From IMG/VR virus record IMGVR_UViG_2529292735_000007: a stretch of DNA of 12,295 nucleotides. One strand, given 5' to 3'. The notes beneath the pieces were generated by a model, which was not told the DNA's origin, searched no databases, and saw nothing but the letters and a program-made list of their open reading frames with translations. Position numbers and translations under genes: made by a program. Source of the DNA: a virus (lineage: Duplodnaviria; Heunggongvirae; Uroviricota; Caudoviricetes). This document shows, piece after piece, positions 2,769-12,230 of the stretch (positions are counted from its first letter, which is position 1; each line of letters starts with the position of its first letter).

Positions 2769-5591
2769 ATGACGGCAGAGTACATCAGGGACTGGCAACA
2801 ACCGCGCCACGCGGTGGGGCGTGAAGGAACGGGGATCCCCGCTCCTGAATCCGCGCTTTCCTCCTGGCTGGGTGCCTACCGGGTAGAGAACGAGCGCCGC
2901 CAGGAAATGGCTGATGCGGCGTTCTCCGCCACGCCGCTGGGCAACCTGATTAATAAAAGCCTGGACGCACAGAAAAAACAGGACAAAACCATCACACTGG
3001 CAGGAGACGCCAGAAAACAGGCACGCGGCGCGGTGGATGAAGCCATGGCCTCGCTGCGCCTGCTGCCGTCCTATCTGCGCGATCCGCTTATTCGCCACCT
3101 CTCCTTCCTGCGCAAAAAACAGGAAGCCGATCGCCGGAAAGGCAAAAAGAGCTGGCAGGCGGAACGCTATGCACGCGGAACCCTGCGCAAAATATTCGAA
3201 CGTCTGGACCGCACTGATCACCGCTGGCTGACACCGGATTATCGCTCCCTTGCTGGACGCGAACGCCTGGACGATTTGCTTTACCTGCCGCAGCTCAACA
3301 AACACCAGATACAGACGCTGGCCACCATGACGGCGGCGATGTTCAGCAGCACCTTCGAAAAACTCTGCGATGGCTTTGGCGCGACTGATGGCGAACTGAC
3401 CATGGATGTAACGCTGAAGGCGTATCAGATGCTGGCCCGCATGGCGTTACACCTGCACGCCATGCCTCCACATTATGACGCACTGACAACAGACAAAGAC
3501 CGGAGGAACGAACCGGACACAGAGCTGCTGCCGGGCGCAATCCTTCGCCTGACCTGTGCGGAATGGTGGAAACGCAAACTATGGCTGTTACGTTGCGAGT
3601 GGAGAGAAGAACAACTCCGCGCCGCCTGTCTGGTTTCCAGAAAAACATCGCCCTATCTGAGCCAGGACGCGTTAAGCGAGTTTCGCGCACAGCGCGAGAA
3701 AACACGCGATTTCCTGAAAAGTTTCATGCTGGAAAACGAAGACGGGTTCACGATTGATCTCGAGACAGTGTATTACGCGGGAGTAAGTAACCCGGTTCAC
3801 CGTAAGGCAGAAATGATGGCCACCATGAAGGGACTGGAACTTCTGGCCGAAGCCCGTGGCGACAGAGCGGTGTTTCTGACTGTCACCTGCCCGTCAAAAT
3901 ACCACGCAACAACGGAGAACGGTCATCCGAACCCCAAATGGAACGGGGCCACCATGCGCGACTCCAGCGATTACCTGGTTAACACGTTTTTTGCGGCGGT
4001 CCGCAAAAAACTGAACCGCGACGGCCTGCGCTGGTATGGCATCCGCACGGTGGAGCCTCACCATGACGGCACCGTGCACTGGCATATGATGGTCTTTGCT
4101 CATCCGGAAGAAATCGACACCATTGTGTCCCACGTCCGCGATATTGCCATTCAGGAAGACCGCCACGAGCTGGGCAATGATATTACTCCACGCTTTAAAG
4201 TGGAGTATGTCGACGGCTCAAAAGGCACACCAACCAGCTATATCGCGACCTACATCGGGAAAAACCTGGACAGCCGCGCCGTGGATGGCATCGACCCGAA
4301 AACGGGCAAACCACGCGTTGACCACGAAACCGGAAAATCAATGGCCGAGAGCGTGGAGCGCGCCATCGGTTGGGCACGCCTTCACCGGGTCCGCCAGTTC
4401 CAGTTCTTTGGCATCCCCTCCCGTCAGGTGTGGCGTGAACTCCGCCGCCTTGCCAGCCAGATGGCACGCAACCCGGAAGGCCCGCAACGGCTGAAGGATG
4501 ACGCAATGGATGCGGTACTCGCTGCCGCTGATGCCGGATGTTTTGCCACCTACATAGAGAAACAGGGCGGCGTACTTGTTCCACGCAAAGACTACCTGAT
4601 TCGCACCGCCTACGACCTCGCCGATGAGCTGAACGATTACGGCGAACAGAGTGTACAGATTTACGGGATCTGGTCACCACTCATCGGGGAATCCTCCCGT
4701 GTGTGCACGCACCCGGATAACTGGAAGCTGGTAAGACGTAAACCGGAACAGGAAGGCAGCGCCCACGAAAATGGTTTTGACCTTCAGGGCGGCCCTGCCG
4801 CCCCTTGGACTCGTGGCAATAACTGTCCCAGTGTACAGGAAACAGACAACAACGGGACAGAACAGCCGGAAGAACGGCCAGCACCGTGGCCGCAGCTTCC
4901 TGACGGCATTGAAGTGAATGAATGGATGCACTCACTGAAACGGCACGAACGCCGGGCGCTGATGCGTTCGCTGCGTGACAAACAGGCCAAAAACAGCAGC
5001 GATGAAATGCAGAACTGGACGCAGAGCCGCAAACAGCCGCGGCCTTTGCCTGATAACCACGAGTTACTCGCTAAAGAATGGCGGGAGTCTGCTGAATCTC
5101 TCGGCCTGCATATTGGTGAACAGCAGATGCAGCACCTGTTACGGGGCGGCAGTCTGTACGTTGACGGCAGCATCATTGCACCGCAGGGATTTGAAATTGT
5201 ACGCAAACCGGATACCCGCCCGGACAGCCGAATCACGCAGCTCTGGCAGCGCCTGAGCCGTAATCACGGCGTAAGCAGCACGGAGATCCGCCATAACCCG
5301 GTCGCCAGCTATCTGGAACAGCTGGGGGCATCAGACCCTGAAGCCGCCGCACGCCTGGCATCCACACTTCAGCAGGACCAGAACACCATGAAAACACCCG
5401 TTACCGTGCTTTCTGACATGCTGCGCGCCATCCGCGACGCAGAGCACGCACAGAGAATCAGTGAAACCACTGAACGCGCCCGCCGCAAAGCAGACCTGCT
5501 GCGGGGTGGCCTGACCAGTGGAAACAAAAAACAGACAGAAACGGGATTCACAAATCCCGTAAATGAGCAAAAAACGCGCCGCGATATATGA
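2769..5591 (+). CDS. A: rolling-circle replication initiator (HUH-type endonuclease, P2 gpA / phiX174 gpA superfamily I), 940 aa
   Basis: Translation contains EPHHDGTVHWHMMVFAHPEE (HWH at nt 4077..4085) and the paired active-site tyrosines in SYIATYIGKN (Tyr codons 4239..4241 and 4251..4253, Y-x3-Y spacing as in phiX174 gpA YVAKYV); position upstream of the Q-P-O head genes matches P2-like prophage order. Confidence 0.85.
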   Translation: MTAEYIRDWQQPRHAVGREGTGIPAPESALSSWLGAYRVENERRQEMADAAFSATPLGNLINKSLDAQKKQDKTITLAGDARKQARGAVDEAMASLRLLPSYLRDPLIRHLSFLRKKQEADRRKGKKSWQAERYARGTLRKIFERLDRTDHRWLTPDYRSLAGRERLDDLLYLPQLNKHQIQTLATMTAAMFSSTFEKLCDGFGATDGELTMDVTLKAYQMLARMALHLHAMPPHYDALTTDKDRRNEPDTELLPGAILRLTCAEWWKRKLWLLRCEWREEQLRAACLVSRKTSPYLSQDALSEFRAQREKTRDFLKSFMLENEDGFTIDLETVYYAGVSNPVHRKAEMMATMKGLELLAEARGDRAVFLTVTCPSKYHATTENGHPNPKWNGATMRDSSDYLVNTFFAAVRKKLNRDGLRWYGIRTVEPHHDGTVHWHMMVFAHPEEIDTIVSHVRDIAIQEDRHELGNDITPRFKVEYVDGSKGTPTSYIATYIGKNLDSRAVDGIDPKTGKPRVDHETGKSMAESVERAIGWARLHRVRQFQFFGIPSRQVWRELRRLASQMARNPEGPQRLKDDAMDAVLAAADAGCFATYIEKQGGVLVPRKDYLIRTAYDLADELNDYGEQSVQIYGIWSPLIGESSRVCTHPDNWKLVRRKPEQEGSAHENGFDLQGGPAAPWTRGNNCPSVQETDNNGTEQPEERPAPWPQLPDGIEVNEWMHSLKRHERRALMRSLRDKQAKNSSDEMQNWTQSRKQPRPLPDNHELLAKEWRESAESLGLHIGEQQMQHLLRGGSLYVDGSIIAPQGFEIVRKPDTRPDSRITQLWQRLSRNHGVSSTEIRHNPVASYLEQLGASDPEAAARLASTLQQDQNTMKTPVTVLSDMLRAIRDAEHAQRISETTERARRKADLLRGGLTSGNKKQTETGFTNPVNEQKTRRDI

Positions 5592-5636
5592 AGCGCGCAC
5601 AAAACAGGCAAAAACGGGATTTCAGAATCCCGTAAA
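5538..5636. promoter_or_regulatory. parC-like operator/centromere: two copies of a 20-bp palindrome upstream of parM
   Basis: AAACGGGATTcacaAATCCCGTAAA (palindrome 5541..5560) and AAACGGGATTtcagAATCCCGTAAA (palindrome 5614..5633), 73 bp apart centre to centre, flanked by CAAAAAAC-type A-tracts; the first copy lies inside the 3' end of the rep CDS. Confidence 0.45.
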
Positions 5637-5667
5637 CGATTAATTAATCAACATAAGGAAAAGCGAC

Positions 5668-6627
5668 ATGAAAATTTGTATCGACGACGGCTCCACCAAC
5701 ATCAAGCTGGCATGGACTGAGAACGGCGAACGCCGCAACGCCATCAGCCCGAACAGCTTCAAGTCGGAATGGTCTGCGCCGTTCGGTGGCACGCAGCCCG
5801 CGAACTACATGCTTGATGGCGTGCGCTATGGTTTTGATCCGGTCAGCGATCGCTTTGTCCAGACGACCGACACGCAATACCAGTACAGTGATGTGAATGT
5901 CATTGCCATTCATCACGCACTGGTCAAATCAGGCATCACGCCACAGGAGGTGGATGTGGTTGTCACCCTGCCACTGAGCGAGTATTTCGACACAAACGCA
6001 CAGCCGGACATGGCCAACATCAACCGCAAAAAAGCGAACGTTATGCGCCCGGTGGAGTACCAGAACGGCGAAGCATTCACTATCCGTAACGTGCGGGTTA
6101 TGCCTGAATCCATTCCGGCTGGCTTTAAAGCACTGGCTGACATGAGTCCGTTTGAATCCCTGCTGATTGTGGATTTAGGCGGAACCACGCTGGATGTGGC
6201 AAAGGTTCAGGGACAACTGGCAGGTATCAGCCAGGTGTTTTGCGATCCACACGTAGGCGTTTCCCTGATGGCCGATGCCGTACTGTCGGTGATGGCCACT
6301 AACGGTATGCGTACCAGTCACCACATCGCCAATACCATTATCGAACATCGCCATGATGAAGCCTGGTTGCGCCAACACATCCACAATGACGCGCATTACG
6401 CCAGCCTGATGGCGGTTATTCGTGAAAAGGAAGAAACACTGAAACAACGCGTGATCCGCGCGCTGGCGGGTTTTTCGGGTTACGGACGGGTGATGGTTGT
6501 CGGTGGTGGGGCGGAGATTGTGGCACCCGCTATCCGCGAAGCCTGCGGAGTTAATGCGACTTTCATCGCGGACGGGGTGCCACAGTTTGCTCTGGTTAAT
6601 GGGCTGTACGCAATGGACAAGGAGTAA
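5668..6627 (+). CDS. parM: ParM/StbA-family actin-like segregation ATPase (type II partition), 319 aa
   Basis: AAGGAAAA Shine-Dalgarno then ATG; translation matches plasmid R1 ParM as recalled from memory along its length (ICIDDGSTNIKLAW, ISPNSFK, QYSDVNVIAIHHAL, VMPESIPAGF, LLIVDLGGTTLDV, GVSL, VVGGGAE, LVNGLYA). Confidence 0.9.
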   Translation: MKICIDDGSTNIKLAWTENGERRNAISPNSFKSEWSAPFGGTQPANYMLDGVRYGFDPVSDRFVQTTDTQYQYSDVNVIAIHHALVKSGITPQEVDVVVTLPLSEYFDTNAQPDMANINRKKANVMRPVEYQNGEAFTIRNVRVMPESIPAGFKALADMSPFESLLIVDLGGTTLDVAKVQGQLAGISQVFCDPHVGVSLMADAVLSVMATNGMRTSHHIANTIIEHRHDEAWLRQHIHNDAHYASLMAVIREKEETLKQRVIRALAGFSGYGRVMVVGGGAEIVAPAIREACGVNATFIADGVPQFALVNGLYAMDKE

Positions 6628-6631
6628 ACCA

Positions 6632-6946
6632 ATGACGACACCAACCAGACGGATAAGTTTCTATCTGAAGCCCGCCGCCGTCAATAGTGAACGGAAGGCG
6701 TGTAATTACCTCGACAGCCTGCCAGCCTCTGAACGCAGCCGCGCGCAACGCGCGGCCTTTCTGGCCGGGCTGGCACTCATAAAACGCGATCCTGCATTTG
6801 CCTATTGGTTGGCCGAATGGCCGGAAGAAGGAGCTGCGCCAGCAAAGAATAATATTCAGAGTAAATATGCCAGCACACCTGCCACCGGAAGCAATCACAG
6901 CACTAGCGAGATAAGAAAGAACATTCAGTCATTTTTCCCGGAGTGA
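6632..6946 (+). CDS. parR: ParR-like ribbon-helix-helix centromere-binding protein / partition adaptor, about 105 aa
   Basis: ATG at 6632, 4 nt after the parM stop; N-terminus RRISFYLKPAAVNSERKACNYLDSLPASERSRAQRAAFLAGLALIKRDP resembles R1 ParR (RTIAFKLNPDVNQ...LDSIPQGERSRLNRAALTAGLALYRQDP, from memory); the track ORF 6497..6946 is the same frame extended upstream. Confidence 0.75.
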   Translation: MTTPTRRISFYLKPAAVNSERKACNYLDSLPASERSRAQRAAFLAGLALIKRDPAFAYWLAEWPEEGAAPAKNNIQSKYASTPATGSNHSTSEIRKNIQSFFPE

Positions 6947-6965
6947 AAACAGGAGAGGTGCATCT

Positions 6966-7397
6966 ATGGCAACTATTCCCAAAAAATGGTTACAACGCAA
7001 AATCGCAGACCTTGAATCGTGTCGTGAAGACATCCCATTTGGCCTTGATGAAAACGATCACAATATGTTAATCGCACTGAAAATCGCACTCACATCGCTG
7101 GAAGCGAAACCTGTTGCATGGACTGATGATGAGGAACTGCGTGATGTCAAGCAGTATGGTTTCGGTGAGATATTTCAGTGTCCGCCAGATAAATACGCGG
7201 ACCCGCGCCGTGTTATCCCTATGTATCAAGAGCCGCCAGCGCCAGCAGTACCAGATGGGCTGGTTAGAGCGGTGCGTTTCTATGAACAGGTTAAGCGTGA
7301 AAATCCGCCAGCCGAAACCGGAGCATGGAAAGACGCTGTTGACTGGGTGCTCAAAGAGGCTTGCCAAGCTGTAAACATTGGCATCAAAGGAGAGTGA
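6966..7397 (+). CDS. hypothetical protein (143 aa), accessory-locus cargo gene 1
   Basis: ATG at 6966 with AGGAGAGG Shine-Dalgarno 7 nt upstream; contains the motif IALTSLEAKPVAW shared with the gene at 7690; proline-rich middle (YQEPPAPAVPDG). Confidence 0.6.
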   Translation: MATIPKKWLQRKIADLESCREDIPFGLDENDHNMLIALKIALTSLEAKPVAWTDDEELRDVKQYGFGEIFQCPPDKYADPRRVIPMYQEPPAPAVPDGLVRAVRFYEQVKRENPPAETGAWKDAVDWVLKEACQAVNIGIKGE

Positions 7398-9486: not shown

Positions 9487-11240
9487 TCAGAACTCCATAA
9501 CCGTGAAACGCTCGTTTTCTCCTTCGCCGCCAATTGGTTCGTTAATGACAGCAAGCATGGTTGCCCACGCAAGGTCGCCGTGGCTGATCCCCCTCGCGCG
9601 GTCCGTTTCGTAAGTGATAAAGCCGCCCGGTGTTTTCACCTTACGCACGGCGTTAAAGGCTGCGACCAGTTCGCGTTCGGCGCGATCGTATTCCCACCGC
9701 CCGGCACGCATTATTTGCAGCATTTTCAGTACCAGCGACCGTTTTGATGACAGCGTGAAGGTGTACGGAATAGCAGCAGGGAAAAACCGTTTCACTATCT
9801 GATAAACAGCCTCCCGTTCCCGCCCGTCACATCAATGCCGATGTGTTCCACGTTGTAGCGACACGTGAACTCTTCAATGACTCTGGCCTGTTCTTCAAAC
9901 TCCAGCCCCTGAACGCGTCGCGTCTCCACCGTTCGAAAACGGCCACCAGGAACAGCCGGAGGGACCACCACGGACACCGCGCCGCTGTCGCCGTTGCCAC
10001 TGCTGCCGTTTGCGTCATACCCAATCCATACCGGGCGATTCCCCATCGGGCGGGGAGCAAAAGGTTTCCAGTCTTTCCAGTCGTCGTATCCGTCAACACC
10101 GCAGCCAATCAGGATATTCAGGTTAAATGCCGATTCCCCTTCGCGGACAAACTCACACATATAGAGATTGAGGAACTCGTCTTCGGTGTTTTCATCACGA
10201 ATTTCGTCGATATCGGTGTGTTTCCAGCCGTGATTAACCACATCTTCCAGCGTGACAATTTGCCGCCACGTCCGGTCAGGGCAGATAAGCCCGTTATGCA
10301 GCGTTTTCCAGTCCACAGAAAAACGCTGGCGTTTATGCGTGGCCTTTTCTCGTTCCAGCGGTCGCCGTTCCAGTAGGCGTATGCCTCGTGCGTTTCGGTG
10401 GATGGCGTGGAGAAGTAGGTGCGCCGCAGTCCGCTGAGGGTTGCCATAGCGCCAGCCACCTTGCGCAGTTCAGCAAAGCGACTAACCCAGAAAAATTCAT
10501 CAAAATAAAAATTGCCCGTATAGGACTGTGCCGACGCAGCAGAAGTGCCGAGAAAATGCAGCTCTGCGCCGTTTGAGAGGATGATTTTATCGCCCCCTTT
10601 CAGCTCCACATCAACTTCAGCCGCGGCCTTCTGAATAATGCTTTTAAACTGGAACGCCTGACGACGCGACGCAGACAAAAAAATCTGGTTACGCTGGTAA
10701 GGTTGCGCCACATCGTCACGCAGCGCCATCAGCAGTGCTTCCTGTGCAAAATACCAGGTCGCCCCAATCTGTCGGGATTTCAGGATCATCCTGTTACGTA
10801 TCCCGGCTTCCCTGCAAAGGGTCAGGGCGTCAAACCAGCCCCGCTGATGCCACTCCAGCCTGCTGATGATTTTTTCCCGCAGTGCGGCAATCTTGTTCCG
10901 GCGTGAAATGATTTTTTAAGTTTTTTTCGCCCCGGCTTTTCTTTCCTGTGGCCGTCGCATCCGGCTGGTCATTATGCAGTTTTTTAAGCTGCCGGGTCAG
11001 CAGGTCTATTTCCTTGAAGTCACCACCTGTTTTATTCTGTTTTTCAGTAAGCTGGATGAGGCGCGCATCGATGGACTGCGTGACACGCTGCACGGGTGGC
11101 GTTTCATCCCACTGATCGCGTTTTTTCCACGCATAAATCGTGTTCGGGTTTATTCCCATCAGACGTGATATTTCTGCGGGCGGATAACCCTGCCAGTAAA
11201 GTTGTCGCGCACGCTGGCGCACAAAAGCGTCCTGAATCAT
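9487..11240 (-). pseudogene. P: terminase large subunit (P2 gpP-like) split into four reading frames by at least three frameshifts
   Basis: Four consecutive minus-strand ORFs (10830..11240, 10118..10789, 9795..10316, 9487..9795) together span about 588 codons; the N-terminal HTH (YWQGYPPAEISRLMGINPNTIYAWKK), ATPase-like core (LSNGAELHFLGTSAASAQSYTGNFYFDEFFW) and nuclease-like IGIDVTGG sit in different frames; junctions lie at homopolymer runs. Confidence 0.75.
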
Positions 11241-11401: not shown

Positions 11402-12230
11402 ATGAAAAAGACATCCCGCAAAAAGTTTCGCGTGGCTGTCTCCGGATCAACTGTTGATGGACGCGAAATCAGCCCGGTACATCTGCGTGAAGCCGCCGAG
11501 AACTTCAACCCGGATGTTTACGCTGCCCGCGTGAACGTTGAGCACTATCTCTCGCCATGCCCGTCAAGCGAATTTTCCGCAATGGGCGATGTCACCGCAC
11601 TGAGTACGGAAGATATTACGGAAGGCCCGCTGGCCGGACGTACTGCGCTGTATGCAGAAATCGAACCGACCGAGCGCATGAAGCAGCTTGTCGCTGACGG
11701 CAAGAAAATCTATTCCAGTATCGAACTGCACCCGCAGTTCTCCGTTAACGGGCGCGCCTATCTGGTCGGGCTGGCGATGACCGACACCCGGCAAGCCTCG
11801 GGCACTGAGCGCCTGAAATTCACGGCACAGCAACGTCAGGCGGTGATGACGTTCAACAGTGTCCAGGGTGAGGCACCGCTTATTTCCGAAGCCATCGAGT
11901 CTGAAATCATCGAAATGGCAGAACAACGCCAGGAAGAAGGCACCCAGTGGTTTAACCGCGTAATGGGGATTATTGGTCGTGGCCGCAAAAGCGGATGACG
12001 CCAGTTTCTCCCGTATTCAGGAAGCGGTGGAAGGCGTCGCAACGTCACAGGCCGACATTATCGACCGTTTTAATGTGCTGGAAACCCGCCATCAGCAGGA
12101 CCGCCAGAAAATCACGTCACTGACCACAGAGCTGGCAGCACTGAAGGAAAAACTGCGCACGCAGGACGGCGATCCGCAGAACCGCTTCACCGCAACAGGT
12201 GCAGCCTCCGACCAGCTGGCTGACTTCTGA
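11402..12230 (+). pseudogene. O: capsid scaffold protein (P2 gpO-like), interrupted by a frameshift near 11990
   Basis: N-terminus MKKTSRKKFRVAVSGSTVDGREIS and internal YLVGLAMTD resemble P2 gpO as recalled (…FRIGVEGDTCDGRVIS…, …YLVGLAVTD…); the frame stops at 11998 and the homologous C-terminal part (AAKADDASFSRIQEAV…) continues in another frame to 12230; an ATG at 11395 with better Shine-Dalgarno spacing (GAGGGG) is out of frame, suggesting a second indel at the start. Confidence 0.7.

Follow-up and report, generated by a model that had tools for sequence, protein, structure and literature searches.

ParMRC (type II partition) systems are textbook plasmid-segregation machines, and the usual picture of their centromere is a long series of direct iterons on which ParR forms a ring or helix. 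The subject of this report is a pair of 20-bp palindromes, termed dyads here, in a stretch of viral DNA of 12,295 bp (IMG/VR record IMGVR_UViG_2529292735_000007; the whole stretch is called the window below). The two dyads lie just upstream of a parM gene, around the end of the replication endonuclease gene gpA. Comparison of the locus with its relatives makes it fairly likely that they are the ParR-binding sites of a prophage type II (ParMRC) cassette, serving as its centromere (parC) and probably as its operator.

Several described systems are close enough to be set beside this locus. In plasmid R1, parC lies upstream of parM and spans 159 bp, and its 39-bp promoter core is flanked on either side by a set of five 11-bp direct iterons (PMC2241845). 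In the SXT/R391 integrative and conjugative elements (ICEs), the srpC site contains two pairs of 13-bp repeats, direct and inverted, to which the adaptor SrpR binds (PMC4489591). In Clostridium botulinum, the cparC site of the chromosomal cParCMR system has three palindromic repeats and is bound by cParR in electrophoretic mobility shift assays, so palindromic ParR sites do exist (PMC12270681). This last system is likewise a chromosome-borne ParMR, but it comes from a distant Firmicute and its ParM forms filaments of another type. Finally, AlpAC/alpS of the Corynebacterium prophage CGP3 combines a prophage-encoded actin-like protein and specific DNA sites with an adaptor that binds DNA, and has been implicated in the transport and replication of phage DNA (PMC5539076). 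The protein families of the CGP3 system are unrelated at the sequence level to those of the present locus, and the phage type is different.

The elements upstream of parM in the window are as follows.

5541–5560: distal dyad (site 1), ACGGGATTCACAAATCCCGT, that is ACGGGATT-CACA-AATCCCGT, with the core GGG-N10-CCC; in the last codons of gpA
5614–5633: proximal dyad (site 2), ACGGGATTTCAGAATCCCGT, that is ACGGGATT-TCAG-AATCCCGT; intergenic, centre 44 bp before the parM ATG
5525–5566, plus strand: direct repeat unit, copy 1, 42 nt, with an A-rich 5′ flank, the dyad and then GTAAATGA (repeat finder)
5598–5639, plus strand: direct repeat unit, copy 2, 42 nt, with the palindrome as its core (repeat finder, family D1)
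5640–5667, plus strand: leader block TTAATTAATCAACATAAGGAAAAGCGAC, made up of ATTAATCAA and a Shine-Dalgarno sequence

The initial annotation of this DNA had reported two palindromes 73 bp apart upstream of parM, with conserved flanks. The palindromes are present exactly as claimed, and the flanks are real and longer than was thought, the palindromes being the cores of the 42-nt direct repeat. The start-to-start distance of the two sites is 73 bp, with 53 bp between them, and site 2 stands 35 nt before the parM ATG (5668). The two repeat copies are 81% identical at the same spacing of 73, with GTAAA(T/C)GA on the 3′ side of the dyads, and dyads and repeat units together span −127 to −35 relative to the parM ATG. 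A search of the window for the pattern ACGGGATT-N4-AATCCCGT, tolerant of up to 3 mismatches, gives 2 matches in 12,295 bp, compared to a mean of 0.06 in 200 shuffles, none of which (0/200) has two or more. The core GGG-N10-CCC occurs at the two dyads only in the whole 12.3-kb window, and the dyads are the sole significant repeat in the region upstream of parM. The base composition of the region is skewed, with 41.5% A and 14% T. Phased A-tracts or intrinsic curvature of the kind reported for R1 parC were considered and rejected, since tracts of three or more A have a phase coherence (10–11.5 bp) of 0.55, which is just the median value for background windows.

The window represents the early region of a P88-type P2-like prophage with the order gpA, parM, parR, and it shares 95–99% identity with Escherichia phage P88 and with other genomes of Xuanwuvirus/Peduoviridae. 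Its three relevant genes are the following.

2769–5591, plus strand: gpA, P2-type rolling-circle replication endonuclease, 940 codons (Pfam Phage_GPA, E = 1.3e-130)
5668–6627, plus strand: parM, actin-like partition ATPase of 319 amino acids (Pfam StbA_N, E = 1.8e-82; ParM C-terminal domain, E = 1.3e-68)
6632–6946, plus strand: parR, ribbon-helix-helix adaptor of 104 amino acids (Pfam Plasmid_stab_B, PF10784, E = 5.9e-26)

Residues 2–316 of ParM match R1 ParM structures (E = 9e-93). The start of parR, 5 nt past the parM stop, is placed from annotated relatives. The only solved structure that is detected from the ParR sequence is pB171 ParR (PDB 2jd3, deposited as StbB protein), and the similarity is low (E = 0.0044) and confined to the N-terminal part, residues 6–61. 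This N-terminal part of pB171 ParR is a ribbon-helix-helix DNA-binding domain. The parC of pB171 has direct 10-bp repeats and is not known to contain dyads. By both its ParM family and its ParR family, the cassette falls within the type II (ParMRC) systems of the R1/pB171 lineage. Repeated cis sites upstream of parM, which mark parC in type II systems, are also present, and the dyad pair is kept in three clades.

Compared to R1, the locus has the same order of cis site, parM and parR, an adaptor of the same family (PF10784) and a ParM about 46–47% identical to those of R1-type plasmids (tblastn). The cis site is also bipartite in both, with two blocks around an unbound spacer, which is 39 bp in R1 (PMC2241845) and a predicted 53 bp here. 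However, tandem iterons of 10–11 bp, as in R1-type parC, are lacking from the window locus, where the repeat search finds only the two dyads; the same examination of other parM loci shows iteron arrays clearly. The promoter scan recognises no consensus promoter at the window locus either. As a replicon, the locus belongs to a P2-like phage that encodes a rolling-circle endonuclease and is usually chromosomal. The observation in the initial annotation that the layout differs from the ten 11-bp direct iterons of R1 (PMC2241845) is therefore correct. Its broader suggestion of a distinct architecture holds with respect to R1 and goes too far beyond it, because dyad or inverted ParR-type sites are known in SXT/R391 srpC (PMC4489591) and C. 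botulinum cparC (PMC12270681), and palindromic repeats in two to four copies stand before other plasmid parM genes. What would be novel here is the two-dyad layout with its conserved seven-turn spacing, dyad-type ParR sites as such being already known.

The closest functional analogue in layout and lifestyle is SrpMRC of the SXT/R391 ICEs, which also belongs to an integrative element that uses rolling-circle replication once excised and carries a ParM-type partition locus (PMC4489591). The two differ in that SrpR has no homology to known ParR according to its authors (PMC4489591), while the window encodes a clear PF10784 ParR; moreover, the repeat sequences are unrelated, and the SXT/R391 element is an ICE and not a phage. 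Among plasmids, some parM loci (for example L126, L129 and pK218-KPC) have two to four TACTCA-N3/4-TGAGTA dyads upstream of parM-parR, and L126 and L129 have exactly two, about 45–50 bp apart. These loci differ from the present one in a ParM that is only about 40–42% identical, in the half-site and in being on plasmids, not phages. We know of no experimental characterisation of them.

A survey by eye of the 250 nt upstream of parM in a set of diverse plasmid loci (L087–L150) distinguishes at least three parC layouts: R1-type AAACCC iterons; TTCTC-type iterons of 10–11 bp that flank a TTGAC..TATAAT promoter; and TACTCA-N3/4-TGAGTA palindromes in 2–4 copies. The half-site of the TACTCA palindrome resembles the TTCTCA iteron.

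The evidence that carries the assignment comes from comparison across clades. The homologues of ParM sort into the P88 lineage, with 99% identity or more, and plasmid ParMs, with 52% or less. Intermediate relatives, also P2-like prophages with parMR after gpA, come from a protein search and from a scan of one genome per species.

E. coli (window): GGG-N10-CCC pair with a spacing of 73 bp, centres at −117 and −44 from the parM ATG
Plesiomonas (L152): ParM 63% and ParR 46% identical; GGG-N10-CCC pair with a spacing of 72 bp, centres at −123 and −51 from the parM ATG
Hafnia (L153): ParM 62% and ParR 47% identical; GGG-N10-CCC pair with a spacing of 73 bp, centres at −120 and −47 from the parM ATG
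Serratia (L086): ParM 58% identical
Enterobacter (L155): ParM 54% identical

Plesiomonas and Hafnia each have exactly two GGG-N10-CCC sites, though their region upstream of parM cannot be aligned with that of E. coli. In 48 parM loci of other lineages, the 250 nt upstream contain no GGG-N10-CCC at all (0/48), and its background frequency is 0.19 per kb. The preservation of the pair, its spacing and its position in such diverged DNA is strong comparative evidence for a functional cis element tied to parMR. The Plesiomonas and Hafnia clades rest on one or two genomes each, because scans of IMG/VR with their ParM sequences added almost no further members.

Next to the start codon, ATTAATCAA..TAAGGA is common to E. 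coli, Plesiomonas and Hafnia, while the rest of the region is unalignable. Within E. coli, variation was assessed over 121 distinct upstream sequences, among which the leader block has the lowest variability of any stretch. In site 1, pairs 4–5 (GG/CC) are G-C in 120 of these 121 relatives, the exception being an outlier with unrelated sequence there, and in site 2 pairs 4, 5, 7 and 8 are unchanged in all 121. Within this clade, conservation stands out at the GG/CC core and at the ATTAATCAA leader only. The two sites of one genome are more alike than the sites of different genomes, which is expected for repeats that are read by one co-evolving protein.

The adaptor itself is built from an N-terminal strand and helices (TRRISFYLKP), a hypervariable linker and a conserved C-terminal tail of the form N..(F/L)FP, which is N..FFPE in the window. 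While ParM is 99–100% conserved in E. coli prophages, ParR drops to about 45–50% identity (P0121–P0196). There are two major alleles of the helix region in E. coli, and the fixed parts are the N-terminal strand and the C-terminal tail only. The strand TRR(I/V)SFYL, which is predicted to read the DNA, is invariant in all E. coli ParR alleles and in Plesiomonas and Hafnia, which are exactly the lineages with the GGG-N10-CCC pair. In the Serratia/Enterobacter clade it is NRKISFYL, alongside a different cis layout. The two forms of the strand thus track the type of site, a modest covariation of protein with site. Within E. coli, a comparison of ParR alleles with dyad variants is uninformative, because the strand is invariant and the variants are spread over both major alleles.

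The distribution of the dyads is that of a cassette component. About a quarter of complete E. coli genomes (1303 of 5426) contain the 151-nt dyad region, with a per-genome median of one place, and among the matches listed the nine of full length (9/9) all lie between the replication endonuclease and ParM. A scan of IMG/VR for the exact palindrome gives 79 readable viral loci, and 77 of the 79 have the same sequence context; the other two are unrelated chance or terminator occurrences. Judged by its sequence context, the motif belongs to the parMR cassette. A dispersed host repeat (similar to repetitive extragenic palindromes or miniature inverted-repeat transposable elements), which the initial annotation had named as an outcome that would undo its proposal, is ruled out by the median of one place per genome and the constant gpA-parM context. 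The parC-like site that it proposed therefore survives in its observable parts, being a cassette-specific sole repeat before a genuine parM-parR with core, spacing and position kept across clades, and parC function is what we infer from these.

One complete E. coli assembly (NZ_CP148288.1, L362) has an apparent whole P88-like genome as a circular ‘plasmid’ of 34,461 bp. This circular record may represent an extrachromosomal phage state.

If the dyads are ParR sites, a mechanism can be outlined. ParR dimers would insert their N-terminal β-ribbon (TRRISFYL) into the major groove at each GGGA/TCCC half-site, and each dyad would take a pair of dimers, because its half-sites are 13 bp apart from centre to centre. 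Since 73 bp is about seven helical turns, the two dyads would lie on the same face of the DNA, which would permit one cooperative, bent or looped ParR complex. The conserved C-terminal tails of ParR would then capture the growing ends of ParM filaments, and ParM would push apart circular copies of the phage genome, whether excised, replicating or episomal. Bound ParR would also throttle the expression of parMR or read-through from the early operon, because the proximal dyad, 35 bp before the parM ATG, overlaps the −35 position of a putative weak promoter.

A further-reaching proposal is that P88-type phages use a minimal centromere, two dyads exactly seven helical turns apart with a canonical ParR, for active segregation or positioning of rolling-circle-replicating or episomal genomes, and that ParR on the distal site, which is inside the early (replication) operon, gates transcription through the end of gpA, thus linking replication, partition and possibly the choice of integrated or plasmid-like carriage. 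Taken as a whole this is rather unlikely. A working two-dyad centromere at 72–73 bp, if true, would much lower the minimum need of the ParR-ParM coupling complex. For a prophage, partition could serve to stabilise circles after excision, which has been proposed for SXT ICEs, to permit carriage in plasmid-like form from time to time, or to organise replicating genomes in lytic growth.

A number of observations weigh against the dyads as centromere and operator. Serratia/Enterobacter, the nearest sister clade, has no GGG-N10-CCC pair. In the E. coli clade, dyads and flanks do not differ clearly in conservation, and about 45% of the sequence variants have one or two broken dyad pairs. Of the 1442 places in complete E. 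coli genomes, 1440 are on chromosomes and 2 on plasmids, and therefore partition would be possible only on excised or replicating circles. The four half-sites are far below the ten iterons of R1. A scan of 5200–7200 finds no sigma-70 consensus promoter, and the operator role is weakened because no consensus promoter lies at or between the dyads. In the literature, we found no paper on binding, footprint or stability experiments for this system, and none that describes ParMRC of P88-type phages. The P88 and phiSM papers contain no analysis of ParMRC; in the phiSM paper, a plasmid stability/partitioning protein is named only in a table.

The sister clade has a cis layout of its own. In Serratia/Enterobacter (L086, L155, L278–L280 and L360), an inverted repeat with arms of about 19 bp lies 40–130 nt upstream of parM and reads GGGAACGA.A.AGAAAAAT, about 30 nt and then ATTTTTCT.TTTCGTTCCC; a TTTAAACGGC element comes after it.

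It is also conceivable, although we consider it unlikely, that ParR does bind the dyads but as an autoregulatory operator only, in an integrated prophage whose degenerate or repurposed ParMR has lost DNA partition or never had it and perhaps positions replication or packaging. Such a role would agree with the chromosomal location of 1440 of 1442 copies, with the presence of only four half-sites and with the frameshifted late genes of the window prophage, and non-partition roles have been proposed for chromosome-encoded ParMs (PMC12270681). Yet ParM is 99–100% conserved over hundreds of prophages, and the conserved C-terminal tail of ParR would, by analogy with R1, bind ParM. In addition, at least one complete assembly has a whole P88-like genome as a 34.5-kb circular plasmid, and rolling-circle integrative elements use ParMRC-like systems on their excised forms (PMC4489591).

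Alternatively, the dyads could be operators for a protein other than ParR, either a phage early protein or a host factor, that acts on the end of the early operon or on parMR without any centromere. Dyad symmetry and a fixed spacing are generic for dimeric regulators, and the window encodes several small helix-turn-helix proteins, such as those of the open reading frames (ORFs) at 666–911 and 1222–1773. However, the pair of sites travels with parMR and with the invariant ParR strand, while the neighbouring early genes differ between clades; an extra neighbouring ORF of 167 amino acids is found in Hafnia, for example, and none in Plesiomonas. The dyads also bear no resemblance to the operators of the P2 repressor in the annotation of NC_001895, nor do they contain TGT-N12-ACA, the late-promoter element of P2. 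We give this explanation little credence.

Palindromes can also act as hairpins, here as minus-strand intrinsic terminators against antisense transcription from the late genes or as stabilisers of the early mRNA, but this is quite unlikely for the dyads. A terminator scan does call both sites on the minus strand, with an 8-bp stem and a T-run (for example ACGGGATTCTGAAATCCCGT followed by TTTTTGCCTGT), each dyad of the E. coli clade folds at −10.7 kcal/mol (z about −3.8), and an unrelated viral contig (L195) has the same palindrome followed by T7. In Plesiomonas and Hafnia, however, all that the sites keep of the stem is GGG/CCC, with 10 unpaired nt between, and their folding energies of −4.2 to −4.9 kcal/mol (z −0.3 to −1.8) are indistinguishable from those of shuffles. 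The 121 E. coli-clade variants contain no compensatory double changes (0), and most broken pairs read A.C at site 1 and G.T at site 2, which leaves neither strand with both hairpins. Moreover, the nearest minus-strand gene is about 2.8 kb off, beyond five plus-strand ORFs, and the plus strand has no T-run at the dyads. A stem maintained in evolution, as a rho-independent terminator has, is thus not observed. These comparisons argue for dyads that are recognised as double-stranded DNA, through two GGGA/TCCC half-sites 13 bp apart, and not as hairpins.

That the palindromes are part of a P2-like replication origin, as gpA nick site or accessory site, is highly improbable: the P2 origin does lie inside gene A (nick site annotated in NC_001895), as site 1 lies inside gpA, but the P2 nick-site sequence GCCGCGCCTCGGAGTCCTGTCAATAACTGT has a clear homologue, GCCGCCCCTTGGACTCGTGGCAATAACTGT, at 4796–4827, at equivalent gpA residues and about 730 bp upstream of the dyads, and the gpA tail in which the dyads lie is missing from P2, while in Hafnia they are within another ORF.

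With the dyads best read as ParR sites, the overlap of site 1 with gpA needs separate consideration. It concerns the 3′ end of the gene.

5514–5591, plus strand: gpA 3′ tail, the last ~25 codons, which cross site 1; weakly constrained coding sequence

Site 1 lies 29–50 nt ahead of the gpA TGA stop and is read as the codons ACG GGA TTC ACA AAT CCC GTA. The initial annotation rightly placed it in the last codons of a replication gene, but that gene encodes a P2-type rolling-circle endonuclease (Phage_GPA) and not a plasmid-type initiator. Homology of gpA between E. coli and Plesiomonas stops near residue 696 of 940, and the tails beyond are unrelated. For residues ~697–940 (about 240 residues; window ~4860–5591), neither P2 nor Plesiomonas gpA offers a counterpart and no Pfam domain is found, so that by these comparisons the tail is specific to the lineage. 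The two Hafnia sites fall in a separate ORF of 167 amino acids that is dissimilar to the E. coli gpA tail. A gene fusion as the source of the long tail was considered and rejected, the extra ORFs of Hafnia and Serratia being dissimilar to it. Close E. coli relatives carry non-synonymous changes in the gpA tail inside site 1 and frameshifting indels in its A-runs, and GTAAATGA, right after site 1, gives stop codons in the other two frames.

Because the overlapped tails and ORFs are unrelated and the gpA tail is prone to frameshifts, the DNA site would be the constrained feature and the coding overlap incidental. On this comparative evidence, the overlap seems a side effect of holding a DNA site fixed in a compact genome. 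The idea that it couples replication-gene expression to partition, also put forward in the initial annotation, finds no support, given the different ORF in Hafnia, the non-homologous tail in Plesiomonas and the frameshifting indels and non-synonymous changes in E. coli relatives.

Around the gpA stop (window 5475–5600), GCGCCGCGATATATGAAGCGCGC is swapped for GCCATAAAACATGAAGTGCGC in some close relatives, so the spacer between the dyads is mosaic.

How parMR is transcribed bears on the operator part of the proposal. The leader block is a possible site of a weak −10 element, a leader or a translation signal. Inspection by eye only yields two weak promoter candidates, TTCAGA, 16 nt and ATTAAT, which overlaps site 2, and ATGAGC, 16 nt and TATATG, which lies between the sites. 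Transcription of parMR may come by read-through from the early operon, or it may start at a weak promoter that is occluded by ParR. The leader block of E. coli (5640–5662) also contains an 8-bp palindrome, TTAATTAA.

Further downstream, two late genes of the window are split when compared to phage P88. The terminase large subunit is in four reading-frame segments (window 9490–11240, minus strand) and the capsid scaffold gpO in two (window 11405–12227, plus strand). Either the prophage is defective, or the sequence contains indel errors.

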